Part shown: positions 60,550-64,000 of the stretch, piece by piece
Layout: every line of letters starts with the position of its first letter
Position numbering within the stretch: the stretch's first letter is position 1
Source of the DNA: an uncultured delta proteobacterium
GTDB lineage: Bacteria; Myxococcota_A; Polyangia; Palsa-1104
Reading direction: 5' to 3'
Assembly (NCBI GenBank): GCA_963785725.1
Contig: CAWAWS010000007.1
Coordinates: 736,001 to 800,000 of the forward strand
DNA: 64,000 nucleotides
The notes under the pieces: generated by a model
Told to the model about the DNA's origin: nothing
The model's database searches: none
The model's input: the letters and a program-made list of their open reading frames with translations, nothing else
Made by a program: the position numbers and the translations under genes

Positions 60550-61485
60550 ATGACCCAACGGATGAAGCCGTACACCGGCGGGAGCTTCGCGCTGGAGCTC
60601 GATCAGAAGCATTCGTCGGTCGGCTGGCTCACCAGCATCGACGGCGGGCACTTCAAGACGACGTCGGTCGACTCGCAGGTCGGTCGCGACGGCTACGTCA
60701 CGAAGTACGCCGGCAAGCCCAGCTACGACGACGTGACCATCGGCTGTGGTCTGGCCATGAGCGGATCGTTTTGGCATTGGGTGCGCGCCAGCCTCCACCG
60801 GAAGCCCGAGCGGCGCGACGGCGCGCTCGTCGCGTACGACTTCAACCAGCGCGAGCGCGGGCGGCGTACGTTTCGGCGCGCGCTCATCTCGGAGATCGCG
60901 TTTCCGGCGCTCGACGCGTCGTCGAAGGCGGCGGCGGGGCTCAACATCAAGTTCTCGCCCGAGCACATCGGCTACGAGGAGGGCGACGGCTCGACGTTGT
61001 CGGCGCAGAACAACAACAACGAGATGACGAAGTCGAAGCAGTGGCTGGCGTGCAACTTCAACTTCGCGCTCGAGCGCTTCAAAGGCGACGTCGCGCTGCG
61101 CAACTGCAAGGTCGAGGCGTTCACGATCAAGCAGAACATCATCGTCAACAACATCGGCGCCGAGCTCGAGCCGCGCAAAGAGCCGGGTCGGCTGGAGATG
61201 CCGCAGATCGTCGTCTCGTTTCCCGAGAGCATGGCCAAGGGCTGGTTCGAGTGGTTCCACAAGGCGAACCGCCTCGGCGAGCGCAGCGATCAGTACACGA
61301 CGGGGCAGATTCAGTATTTGGCGCCCGACAACCGGCAAGAGCTGATGCGCATCGACCTCGATGGCGTGTCGCTGATCTCGATCGAGATCGACAAGCTGGA
61401 GGCGCACCGCGAGTCGATCGCCAACGTGAAGTGCACGTTGAACGTCGAGAGCATGAAGATGGTCAACGGGCCCGGCATCATTTAG
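60550..61485 (+). CDS. Phage tail tube-like protein with two tandem T4 gp19-like domains
   Basis: Domain 1 FALELD...KYAGKPSYDDVTI...FWHW...RRDGAL...LDASS; domain 2 NFNFAL...KEPGRLE...WFEWF...TGQIQYL; AAGGAG SD. Confidence 0.75.
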   Translation: MTQRMKPYTGGSFALELDQKHSSVGWLTSIDGGHFKTTSVDSQVGRDGYVTKYAGKPSYDDVTIGCGLAMSGSFWHWVRASLHRKPERRDGALVAYDFNQRERGRRTFRRALISEIAFPALDASSKAAAGLNIKFSPEHIGYEEGDGSTLSAQNNNNEMTKSKQWLACNFNFALERFKGDVALRNCKVEAFTIKQNIIVNNIGAELEPRKEPGRLEMPQIVVSFPESMAKGWFEWFHKANRLGERSDQYTTGQIQYLAPDNRQELMRIDLDGVSLISIEIDKLEAHRESIANVKCTLNVESMKMVNGPGII

Positions 61486-61531: not shown

Positions 61532-61897
61532 TTAGCGGAGCAGAGCGCGGAGGGTGGCGCGGAGCGTGTGGGGGGTGGTCGGGACGTCGACGATGCCGAT
61601 GAGGGCGGCGGTCGGGAATGGCGGATCGGCGCGAACGGCGTCGTCGCCGCGGGTGGTGAGCGTGGTCGAGGTCGCGCCGATGAGGCGGTGGGCGATGAGG
61701 CGCTCGGGCGTGGCGATGACGACGACGTCGCCGAGGCGGGCGTCGGCGGCGACGGCGGGGCGGACGCGCAGGCGATCGCCGGGCGCGAAGAGCGGGCGCA
61801 TGCTGGTGCCGGTCGCGGGCAGGATGACGGGGCGGCCTTCGCGCAGGAGCGCGGCGGCAGCGAGCGAGCGCAGCGGCAGCTCTGACGCGCGCGACAT
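61532..61897 (-). CDS. S24/S26 family peptidase (soluble)
   Basis: GTSMRP...GD.L.V...GDVVV...AHRL...TRGD; no TM segment. Confidence 0.85.
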   Translation of the reverse strand: MSRASELPLRSLAAAALLREGRPVILPATGTSMRPLFAPGDRLRVRPAVAADARLGDVVVIATPERLIAHRLIGATSTTLTTRGDDAVRADPPFPTAALIGIVDVPTTPHTLRATLRALLR

Positions 61898-62812
61898 TTA
61901 GGGCGGACCGCCCAGGCGATCGAGCAGCAGGCGCGCGGCGGCAACGCCCTTGCGGTTGTGGAAGACGTAGCGCGGCACGTCTTGCACGAGGCGCGCGAGA
62001 TGATCGAGCACGCGCGCCGAGGCTTTGTCGTCCCACACGGGCGGGAAATGGCAGCGGTAGAGCAGCGCCAAGGCGCGCGCCGGCGTGATGGGCACGAGCT
62101 CGTCGCGGTCGGCCTGCTCGAGGAAGACGAGGCCGCGCAGGGGCGCCGACGAGTTGTGGGCAAAGCCGCCCTCGCCGGGCCAGGGCGTGCCGCCGAGCGC
62201 CCACTGACCGGGCGCGCCGCCGTTCTCGCCGTCGCTGCGCGCGCTGCCGTCGTCGTGGACGCGGTTGAGCGGGCGGACGACGGTGCGCTCGTCGGAGAGG
62301 ATGCGGGCGCCGAGCTCGGAGCAGGCGCGCGCCATCGTCGACTTGCCGGCGCCCGACGGGCCGGCGACGAGGAATGCGCCGTCACGGCCGACGATGCTGG
62401 CCGCGTGCGCGAGCGCGCCGCCGCCGATGCCGAGCGCGTGAATCGTCAGCAGCTGATCGGACGGATAGGCGAACGGCCGTGGCGCAGCGTCGTCGCGATA
62501 GTAGGCGTGGCCGTCGAGGCCGTCGCGCGGCAGCTCCACGCGCATGACCTCGAGCGGCGTCGCCGACGAGTCCTTGATGCAGAGCGTGAAGCGAGCGTCA
62601 TCGAGAAACGCGGCCCAGCTGTCGACTTCGATGACCGGCGTTCCGGTTGGCCGCAGCGGCGCTGGTGCGACGTGTGTTTGCAGGCGCAGCTCGATCGTCG
62701 GCGTTCCCTCGCCGCGCGCCGCGTCCTCCGCGGGCATATCGCCGGCGAGCGCAATCGCGACGCCGCCGACGACGTGGGTCAGCTCGCGCTCGGAGTCACG
62801 CACGCGGCGCAC
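61898..62812 (-). CDS. HPr kinase-like P-loop protein (RiPP-cluster associated)
   Basis: LAHAASI, GPSGAGKST, ILSDERTVVR, GTPWPG; start at 62812 or 62803. Confidence 0.78.
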   Translation of the reverse strand: MRRVRDSERELTHVVGGVAIALAGDMPAEDAARGEGTPTIELRLQTHVAPAPLRPTGTPVIEVDSWAAFLDDARFTLCIKDSSATPLEVMRVELPRDGLDGHAYYRDDAAPRPFAYPSDQLLTIHALGIGGGALAHAASIVGRDGAFLVAGPSGAGKSTMARACSELGARILSDERTVVRPLNRVHDDGSARSDGENGGAPGQWALGGTPWPGEGGFAHNSSAPLRGLVFLEQADRDELVPITPARALALLYRCHFPPVWDDKASARVLDHLARLVQDVPRYVFHNRKGVAAARLLLDRLGGPP

Positions 62813-62964
62813 AAATGGAAGCCGGTGCCGCCGCGGCCAGTACCAGCGCCACCGGCCGTCTTGCAGCCGGCGAGCAGGTTTTCATTGGCGCGCAGCGGAA
62901 TGTCTTCCACGGCCGGTGGCTCATAATCCTCGCGAACGATCTGACTATCCTGCTGATTGTCCAT
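62779..62964 (-). CDS. Putative RiPP precursor peptide (61 aa)
   Basis: GAGGAG SD; leader with YEPP..EDIPL..NENLLAGCK; Gly-rich core with Cys34, Cys52, Cys55 and C-terminal Ser; lies between the rSAM and kinase genes. Confidence 0.85.
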   Translation of the reverse strand: MDNQQDSQIVREDYEPPAVEDIPLRANENLLAGCKTAGGAGTGRGGTGFHLCAACVTPSAS

Positions 62965-64000
62965 GTTCTCCTCGCAGTCGCAGCTTCACCAGCCCGTTGG
63001 GCATGGGACGGTTCTCGCCGAACATATCGGCATTGCGCGCATCGGTGACCGCGCACATGTACGGATTGCCGCCGTCGGCAGCCAAGCCTTCGAGCTCGGC
63101 CATTCCCGTGCAGTTGGAGCAGGCGACGCCGGTCGTGCACGTGCCGCAGCCGCTCATATCGTCGCGGCGCGTGTCGAGCACTTTGGCAAAGGGCGCGCCG
63201 AAGCCCGCGGCGAAGCCGTCGCGCAGGACGTCCCAGCCGGGCTTGCGCGACAGCTCGCACACGTGCAGCTTGCCGTAGGGATCGATGAGATAGGTCGCGG
63301 CCCCGGCGCCGCACTGATAGCGCTTGTCGCTCGGCGGCGGCGTGCCCAGTCGCGGCGCGCAGAAGTCGGCCAGCTCGTGCTTTCGCTTGCCGTCACCGCC
63401 TTCGACCGCGGCCACTTCGTCCGGCGACAGGCGCTGCTCGAGCGGCTTTCGTCCGCCGTCGATGCGCGGGCTCAAGACGGCGTCGAAGCGGAAGCGCAGC
63501 CCTTCGTCCTCGGCGAAGCGACGAATGTCGTGCACTTCGTCGCGCGTCGCCTTCATGGCGATCGCCTTGAGCGTGACGGAGACGCCCGCGGCGCGCAGTC
63601 GGCTCAAGCCGGTCTTGAAGCGATCGTATTGGGCGCCCGCGTCGGTGACTTTGTCGTAGGTCTCGGGCTTGAACCCATACTGCGTCACCTCGACCATCCG
63701 CGGCGGGCGCGTGCGCCACATCTCGAGGTGCCGCTCGGTGATGAGCACGGCGTTCGTGTAGACGTTGAGGACGATGCCCTTGTCGTGCGCGTACGAATAG
63801 ATGTCGCAGAAGTCGGGACGCAAGAGCGGCTCGCCGCCGGTCAGCGTCAGCCACAGCGTGCCGGCCTCGGCGATCTGATCGATCACGGCGAACCACTCGG
63901 TCGTCGTGAGCTCGCGTCGCTGCGCCGGGCGATCGTTGGCCGGCAGGTTCACGTAGCAGTGAATGCAGGCGAGATTGCAGCGATGGGTCAGCTCCAATCC
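62945..64000 (-). CDS. Radical SAM/SPASM domain protein (5' truncated by window)
   Basis: CNLACIHC, TGGEPLL, YTNA; SPASM Cys pattern Cx12Gx4C...Cx2Cx5Cx2Cx18C. Confidence 0.95.
   Translation of the reverse strand, partial: GLELTHRCNLACIHCYVNLPANDRPAQRRELTTTEWFAVIDQIAEAGTLWLTLTGGEPLLRPDFCDIYSYAHDKGIVLNVYTNAVLITERHLEMWRTRPPRMVEVTQYGFKPETYDKVTDAGAQYDRFKTGLSRLRAAGVSVTLKAIAMKATRDEVHDIRRFAEDEGLRFRFDAVLSPRIDGGRKPLEQRLSPDEVAAVEGGDGKRKHELADFCAPRLGTPPPSDKRYQCGAGAATYLIDPYGKLHVCELSRKPGWDVLRDGFAAGFGAPFAKVLDTRRDDMSGCGTCTTGVACSNCTGMAELEGLAADGGNPYMCAVTDARNADMFGENRPMPNGLVKLRLRGEHGQSAG

Follow-up and report, generated by a model that had tools for sequence, protein, structure and literature searches.

A conserved five-gene radical SAM operon in an uncultured delta proteobacterium, a candidate minimal pathway to a cross-linked phosphopeptide

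A stretch of 64,000 nucleotides from an uncultured delta proteobacterium (GTDB lineage Myxococcota_A; Polyangia; Palsa-1104; assembly GCA_963785725.1, contig CAWAWS010000007.1, positions 736,001 to 800,000 of the forward strand), hereafter the window, ends inside a cassette of five coupled minus-strand genes. On sequence grounds this is a real, conserved and uncharacterised operon for a ribosomally synthesised and post-translationally modified peptide (RiPP), whose chemistry we infer throughout. The genes run in the order RiPP recognition element (RRE), radical S-adenosylmethionine (rSAM) enzyme, precursor peptide, kinase and S26 peptidase. Four of them lie inside the window, and the RRE gene lies past base 64000:

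64093..64395 in window-equivalent numbering (G000:C7:800093-800395), minus strand: discrete RRE/PqqD protein of 100 amino acids (PF05402, 51.4 bits, cut-off 23.4)
62945..64000 in the window, with its start at window-equivalent 64096, minus strand: radical SAM/SPASM enzyme of 383 amino acids (PF04055, 69.4 bits)
62779..62964, minus strand: precursor peptide of 61 amino acids, with a ribosome-binding site (GAGGAG) just before its ATG
61898..62812, start uncertain, minus strand: HPrK-like P-loop kinase of about 294-304 amino acids, named from its motifs and from family scores below cut-off
61532..61897, minus strand: predicted soluble S26 peptidase of SEC11/SipW type, 121 amino acids (Ser32-His70-Asp85)

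A sequence-only reading of the window had described four minus-strand open reading frames (ORFs), which the coordinates 61532-(64096) confirm, and had expected a PqqD/RRE gene past base 64000, where one was indeed found. The stop codon of the RRE gene overlaps the rSAM start (ATGA). As that reading had also described, the rSAM stop (62945-62947) lies 20 nt within the precursor gene, and the kinase and peptidase genes meet in TAAATG (61900-61895). Its overlap between the precursor stop and the kinase start holds only in part. No ATG or GTG is present there, and the codon at the equivalent position is CTG (overlap CTGA). The kinase would therefore begin at CTG 62782 or at an upstream GTG, 62803 or 62812. 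At the same position GTGA occurs in four of ten relatives examined, and TGATG in one. A promoter and terminator scan of the cassette gave no signal exceeding that of shuffled sequence, and its GC content falls in the range of the flanking DNA. In the surrounding 20 kb locus (L001), a local profile search gave no match for an exporter, a nucleotidyltransferase, a C25 protease or a second rSAM enzyme. The transporter that had been anticipated past base 64000 was not found in this locus, and neither were the second rSAM enzyme and the nucleotidyltransferase that were to be looked for in the following DNA.

The precursor has a leader carrying YEPPAV (Y14-P17-V19) and E28-x-L-L-A-G. Its predicted core, C34-S61, comprises 28 residues, with Cys34, Cys52 and Cys55 and a C-terminal Ser61, and would weigh 2537.16 Da (monoisotopic) if unmodified. 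Related precursors share the pattern [YW]xxP...EExxLxx-CK...C...C-x5-S. The 36 aligned members are described by no Pfam or NCBIfam family, although three of them match the precursor model of paeninodin marginally (E 0.13). No second precursor was found elsewhere in the genome, either by motif or by model.

The model that collected these precursors covers the leader through CK plus one residue and leaves the tail outside. Consequently, counts for the leader are partly built in, while those for the tail are not. Among 67 complete precursors (of 68, one incomplete sequence having been dropped; in the row for L029 the division falls at the wrong Cys), 62 have Ser as their last residue, compared with a frequency of 10.6% Ser within cores, and seven of nine further precursors outside this set do likewise. 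The terminal Ser is encoded by all six Ser codons, and in 45 of the 62 no start codon overlaps the stop. This indicates that selection acts on the residue itself, and rules out the overlapping kinase start as its cause. At least three Cys are present in 63 of the 67. Anchored profiles could be drawn for the 60 precursors with at least three Cys and a C[KS] anchor. In these, the last Cys lies six residues from the C-terminus in 37 and five in 12 (49/60 together), while the remaining distances between Cys range over 11-20 and 3-22. Position -3 to the first Cys is Leu in 50/60 and position -1 is G, A, T, S or N in 49/60, with G in 25 and N, T, F or H also frequent. Lys directly follows the first Cys in 55/60, partly by seeding. 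One relative (L024) reads FET|CK at this point.

The core spacers are rich in Gly, Ser, Thr and Pro, with no conserved position for an aromatic or acidic acceptor: 12 of the 67 cores have no W, F, Y or H, and 24 have no Asp or Glu. Cyclophane and triceptide RiPPs are defined by a conserved aromatic residue in a three-residue motif. With no such position conserved here, the cyclophane chemistry that the first reading had entertained is unlikely. In a branch of loci with WxxP leaders (L035, L045, L046, L076, L078 and others), each locus has between two and four rSAM paralogues and as many as four precursors, and the distance from Y/W to Cys is 21 instead of 20.

The rSAM enzyme carries CxxxCxxC (C40, C44, C47) and seven SPASM cysteines (262, 280, 317, 320, 326, 329 and 348), as first reported from the sequence, and all are invariant in a 31-row alignment (A1). 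It passes no NCBIfam equivalog model. The highest scores are for MftC (92 bits, cut-off 265), NirJ2 (87, cut-off 500), AhbD (84, cut-off 500) and PqqE (77, cut-off 381). The thioether-maturase models StsB (74/625), AlbA (51/850) and SkfB (52/300) and the SynChlorMet (SCM) models ScmE (62.4 bits) and ScmF (61.7 bits; both cut-offs 400) are likewise not reached. Clustering with NirJ/Ahb-like enzymes had been named at the outset as the outcome that would speak against a peptide pathway, and the enzyme falls far below the cut-offs of these families, as of MftC and PqqE. The structure model (pLDDT 88.7) contains no cluster geometry. Its nearest solved folds are SkfB, MoaA, SuiB, PqqE and CteB, at no more than 22% identity, with SkfB the top match both in sequence and in fold; the nearest ESM Atlas clusters (0.87-0.90) are unnamed hypothetical proteins. 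The family is one with neither a curated model nor a close solved structure. SuiB is an amino-acid cross-linker that is not known to make thioethers.

Two features bear on auxiliary cluster I (Aux I) and the chemistry that it might support. The last SPASM Cys pair is CX2C, unlike the CX3C of the canonical motif quoted in the available text of PMC6231123. In addition, 114 of 119 close homologues have an eighth cysteine, C246. The wider family has it in only 55 of 120 rows, and it is missing in several to many of the single-rSAM relatives with the same precursor type. According to the same available text, the thioether maker CteB has three protein Cys on Aux I and an open site, whereas in SuiB a linker Cys fills that site (PMC6231123). 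CrpC, which makes thioethers, has the same predicted three-Cys Aux I pattern (PMC13692751, available part). In the present lineage, Aux I may have an open site as in CteB, or one filled by C246 as in SuiB.

The kinase contains His136, GPSGAGKST (151-159) and D174-E175, which correspond to the His, the Walker A motif and the two acidic residues of HprK-like proteins; H136, G156 and K157 are invariant in 83/83 rows. Its family scores are highest for ScmC (32.3 bits, cut-off 125), followed by HprK_rel_A (26.4) and HprK_rel_B (24.2). The peptidase keeps its triad across relatives (S32 in 56/58 rows, H70 in 59/59 and D85 in 58/58) and has no membrane helix (maximum 19-residue hydropathy 1.05). Profile matches to SEC11C/A (E 9e-14) are much stronger than that to LexA (1e-4), and the match to TIGR02228 (E 2e-8, 34.2 bits) is under the cut-off of 51.85. 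These features point to a soluble S26 enzyme of SEC11/SipW type with a Ser-His-Asp triad. The LexA/S24 identity was rejected, so that only the S26 half of the original S24/S26 label stands. For the RRE, the best PDB match is 9x8z_B (LppB, the RRE of the LPP system discussed below; E 0.0084), and ScmD (TIGR04248) is not passed (29.5 bits, cut-off 100).

The five-gene order is intact in six genomes of the same family (G002, G003, G004, G005, G006 and G012) and in one outside it (G019), and partial loci in G001, G009 and G011 agree with it. The G005 copy is more distant, and an ABC exporter and a nucleotidyltransferase adjoin it. In the close relatives the cassette is a single copy at the same chromosomal site, downstream of a UPF0262 gene where contigs reach that far. 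Their rSAM enzymes form a single clade among single-rSAM loci (7 rows, FastTree support 1.0), and several close homologues are labelled Polyangia or Myxococcales in the sources. The rSAM enzyme was matched in nine of 14 other genomes of the family versus none of 23 in the largest sister family, and the kinase in ten of 14 (two weak), the genomes not all being complete. The claim that these genes act in one pathway is supported by the finding that the same peptide stands behind every close rSAM homologue whose locus reaches that position: it is present in eight genomes (two with the rSAM gene cut by a contig end) and in loci L157-L160.

A broader set of 74 loci was taken from the genome_contigs scan, based on the best 80 of 580 confirmed matches, and protein family labels of related loci were verified on representatives. 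Loci in which the pairing of rSAM enzyme and peptide recurs carry labels such as Deltaproteobacteria, Omnitrophota, Chloroflexi, Nitrospirota, Acidobacteriota and Verrucomicrobia. Among the 74 loci, 12 have the exact five-gene order, and the components are found individually as follows: RRE 61, kinase 62, S26 peptidase 46, precursor 47, ABC exporter 25, nucleotidyltransferase (NTP_transf_5) 22 and C25 protease 12. Of the 27 without a called precursor, six gave a candidate by hand, 15 have a Clostridia-type layout and six are short contigs. The Clostridia-type loci (L065, L067, L074, L077, L079, L081-L084, L086, L088, L090 and L092-L094) mostly read kinase-rSAM(-RRE), have no precursor of this type and in some cases lie beside a protein of about 2,400-2,600 amino acids. 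They are a related but different system.

In G000, PF14907 gave just two hits, on contigs C30 and C29, and the genes around them are unrelated, which gives no support for a nucleotidyltransferase in trans (the score for C30 is circular, as the C30 sequence seeded that model). PF01364 (C25) was not found in G000, G001, G003, G004 or G012, which are 88-99% complete, while the control G019 was positive. Given this, and its presence in only 12/74 loci, an obligate link to a C25 protease was rejected, and such a protease is unlikely to be a required substrate or partner.

The closest precedent is the pathway for linear polyphosphorylated peptides (LPPs), lppA-K-B-S-D-N of Paenibacillus alginolyticus (Popov et al. 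2026, PMC13381572, of which the available text is used here). The two share a discrete RRE, a YxxPxV leader, an HprK-like Ser kinase and a signal peptidase of archaeal type with Ser-His-Asp. The kinase and peptidase of the cassette are recognised by motif and by scores below cut-off. NTP_transf_5 and ABC exporter genes, present in part of the 74 loci, extend the likeness to relatives of the cassette. LPP cores are linear and variable, phosphorylated at Ser3 and confined to Bacillota, and the available text of PMC13381572 does not mention a radical SAM enzyme, apart from one column header in a supplementary domain matrix. In contrast, the cassette encodes a SPASM enzyme, and its precursor has three conserved Cys and ends in Ser. 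The LPP core genes for an NTP transferase and for an MsbA-like exporter are both absent from L001. Of the LPP leader YxxPxVLxHQxIxFETxxS, the cassette matches only YxxPxV and, in one register, E-2, with no HQ and no FET; its own family consensus is EExVLxxCK...C...C...S.

Phosphorylated lasso peptides, paeninodin and pseudomycoidin, with their kinases PadeK and PsmK (PMC6993621, available part), resemble the cassette in their [YW]xxP leader, discrete RRE and HprK-like kinase acting on a C-terminal Ser. Such a Ser is present here as a sequence feature (Ser61, and 62/67 relatives), and some relatives also have a nucleotidyltransferase. Where the lasso systems have a cyclase and a B2 cysteine protease, the cassette has an rSAM enzyme and a serine peptidase, and its core begins Cys-Lys and has no conserved Asp or Glu. 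Neither a lasso cyclase C nor a B2 protease is among the five coupled genes or the flanking genes described here, the rest of the genome not having been searched for a cyclase. Judged from its genes, the cassette is best described as an LPP- or paeninodin-like pathway in which a radical SAM enzyme stands where the cyclase would be. It is a member of neither class, since it has no core nucleotidyltransferase or exporter, a different leader and no cyclase.

SynChlorMet (NCBIfam TIGR04248-04251), to which the cassette had been likened, shares the RRE-rSAM-peptide order, and its ScmC is the best family for the kinase. However, it has two rSAM enzymes where the cassette has one, with no second in L001. 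Membership was rejected because all four models failed (ScmC 32/125, ScmD 29.5/100, ScmE 62/400, ScmF 62/400), and 76 proteins taken from 25 related loci all fell short of the SCM models too. What survives of the likeness is a distant kinship. The sole over-cut-off ScmE locus found among 301 genomes (L122 in G167) reads RRE-ScmE-peptide-rSAM. Between ScmE and the next rSAM gene, L122:2886-3314 (G167:C530) encodes a candidate SCM precursor of about 135 amino acids, whose leader contains YxxP and which has many C-x-x-G repeats and ends in Gly-Ser. The gene order and this peptide suggest that the two systems share an ancestry of design, although the long peptide with its Cys-repeat units differs from the 28-residue, three-Cys core of the cassette.

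With the maturases of sactipeptides and ranthipeptides (SkfB, CteB, StsB and CrpC) the cassette shares a SPASM enzyme that depends on an RRE and has three invariant Cys on Aux I, as well as a substrate rich in Cys, and the combination of SPASM rSAM, RRE and Cys-containing precursor is present. It differs from them in the low identity given above (at most 22%), in an RRE that is discrete rather than fused, in CX2C for CX3C, and in its kinase and signal-peptidase partners. No study of the cassette or its product was found in the literature searched, which mostly excluded subscription papers.

The five genes very probably form one peptide pathway. Taken as a whole, they are best explained, with somewhat more confidence than doubt, as a minimal RiPP operon that would produce a cross-linked phosphopeptide of about 28 residues, released from its leader. 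In this scheme the RRE would bind the YxxPxV leader and present the precursor. The HPrK-like kinase would then place one or more phosphates on the C-terminal Ser61, a step that is probable by analogy with PsmK and PadeK, which phosphorylate the C-terminal Ser of lasso precursors (PMC6993621). In LPP, similarly, the discrete RRE binds YxxPxV and LppK phosphorylates Ser (PMC13381572). The SPASM enzyme, acting through a 5'-deoxyadenosyl radical, would link the sulfur of one, two or three core Cys to other residues of the core. These links are probably thioethers, each costing 2 Da (-2 Da), and most likely at backbone alpha-carbons because the Cys are conserved and no acceptor side chain is. Finally, the Ser-His-Asp peptidase, guided by the RRE, would remove the leader, most likely at L-A-G|C34 and otherwise after N29. 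LppS (S29/H68/D93) provides the model, since it removes the leader after F-E-T only with the RRE present (PMC13381572). A cut before C34 is the likelier outcome given Leu at -3, a small residue at -1 and the relative that reads FET|CK. With no adjacent exporter, the product would stay in the cell or use a transporter encoded elsewhere.

Several observations weigh against this scheme. No close relative of the rSAM enzyme is characterised, the enzyme scores best against families of decarboxylating or heme enzymes (MftC, NirJ2, AhbD), albeit far under cut-off, and C246 could fill the open site of Aux I as the SuiB linker Cys does. Five of the 67 precursors do not end in Ser, and a kinase is present in the locus for four of those five. 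A gapless alignment to the LPP register (Y-16, with E28 at E-2) places the cut after N29, and the counts for L-3, E and CK are partly built in, the leader model having been seeded on that pattern. The 15 Clostridia-type loci with related rSAM enzymes, together with the phylum loci L130 and L131, yielded no such precursor. Moreover, the genomes are related, so the counts are not independent.

The strongest competing explanation, which we consider unlikely, keeps the operon and the roles of kinase and peptidase and changes the rSAM chemistry to something other than a standard thioether. The enzyme might oxidise or decarboxylate the C-terminal (phospho)Ser and close a ring to the Cys six residues upstream, or cross-link Cys34 to Lys35. 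The near-constant distance from the last Cys to the terminus amid variable spacings elsewhere and the frequent Lys after the first Cys (partly by seeding) would fit, as would an Aux I fully ligated by the eighth Cys in this lineage, but many relatives lack C246. The fixed distance could equally reflect the reach of the kinase from ring to terminus, and lasso-type kinases use a free C-terminal Ser. The top NCBIfam score is for MftC, which decarboxylates a C-terminal residue (PMC10288494, whose available text mentions no kinase or peptidase), although this score (92) is well under the cut-off (265). A more specific version, which we hold only tentatively and regard as rather improbable, has kinase and rSAM enzyme acting jointly on the tail to form a ring between the last Cys and a phosphorylated, possibly decarboxylated, terminal Ser. 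Cys-x5-Ser(COOH) would then mark the ring, the signal-peptidase-type enzyme would unmask an N-terminal Cys-Lys, and the product would, with the same low probability, belong to a new RiPP class, for which the five-gene, exporter-free copy would be the smallest producing set.

The remaining explanations depart further from a cross-linked peptide. The three Cys could be free or disulfide-bonded and bind a metal or Fe-S cluster, with the rSAM change mass-neutral or away from Cys (for example epimerisation) and the phosphopeptide acting intracellularly as a metal-binding or regulatory factor. The cassette's lack of an adjoining exporter, its single copy at a fixed chromosomal site by the UPF0262 gene in the closest relatives, and spacers rich in Gly, Ser, Thr and Pro with no conserved acceptor agree with this, but 25/74 related loci have an ABC exporter. 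Cys-rich cores encoded next to RRE-dependent SPASM enzymes usually indicate thioether RiPPs (AlbA, CteB, PapB), and because the core here is of that kind, we judge a metal-binding role improbable. It is very improbable that the small ORF is incidental and the rSAM enzyme a cofactor or protein maturase, whether of NirJ/Ahb type, an anaerobic sulfatase maturase or one serving a neighbouring C25 gingipain-like protein. NirJ2 and AhbD are among its best NCBIfam descriptions, and 12/74 related loci have a C25 protease, but no maturase score exceeds roughly one third of its cut-off, an ORF with an RRE-binding motif is conserved across phyla, and PF01364 was not found in the five family genomes searched while present in the control. 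Least credible of all is a tiny lipoprotein lipidated at Cys34. The peptide has L31-A32-G33-C34, its L-L-A-G-C matching the lipobox, and G occurs at -1 in 25/60 relatives. The leader is acidic, however, -1 is often N, T, F or H, and the cassette has its own soluble type I peptidase. This reading was rejected because the peptide has no hydrophobic signal segment (maximum 19-residue hydropathy 0.49).

The surroundings of the cassette include several further genes. Upstream, past the RRE gene, are a CxxCH lipoprotein-like gene, a divergent Cys-rich lipoprotein-like gene and the UPF0262 gene, beyond which lies a gene that presumably encodes a citrate synthase. In the slot between RRE and UPF0262 genes (L001:5461-6981), the divergent, Cys-rich gene is also lower in GC. 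The same slot holds a lamin-tail-domain protein in G004 and a similar-looking gene in G002, and is empty in G003, G006, G012 and G009. The flanks also include tail-tube-like and penicillin-binding protein (PBP) genes. The former, at 60550-61485 on the plus strand, is a 311-amino acid gene convergent with the cassette and contains two stretches resembling the T4 gp19 tail tube (PF06841, 50.5 bits). Such a gene lies beside the cassette in seven loci, this one included, with no other injection-system gene adjoining. Elsewhere in the genome, four PqqD-family domains within 13 kb (G000:C3:479964-493188) probably mark a separate RiPP cluster; no precursor of the cassette's family was found there. 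A second RRE and radical SAM match lies on the cassette's own contig (G000:C7:48130-48866; 28% identity to the cassette rSAM enzyme). Lastly, a stand-alone S24/S26-like gene of 101 amino acids (G000:C8:99253-99558), with no RiPP genes nearby, follows what we take to be a TetR-like gene.

RRE, HprK kinase and SipW-like peptidase are known as part of a toolkit characterised in 2026 for LPPs (PMC13381572, available text). What distinguishes the operon is the joining of this LPP-type toolkit to a radical SAM enzyme in a minimal five-gene form. The copy described here is a pared-down version of a widespread gene set; it overturns no principle, and every enzyme type in it has a precedent. With one precursor, one rSAM enzyme and no extra tailoring genes, it offers a clean five-gene test case, with well-defined predictions for S61, C34/C52/C55, C246 and the cut site. 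If the preferred reading of the operon as the source of a cross-linked phosphopeptide is true, the RRE-kinase-signal-peptidase toolkit of LPPs would extend to a class of cross-linked phosphopeptides, and the cross-linking enzyme would be one that tolerates highly variable cores.

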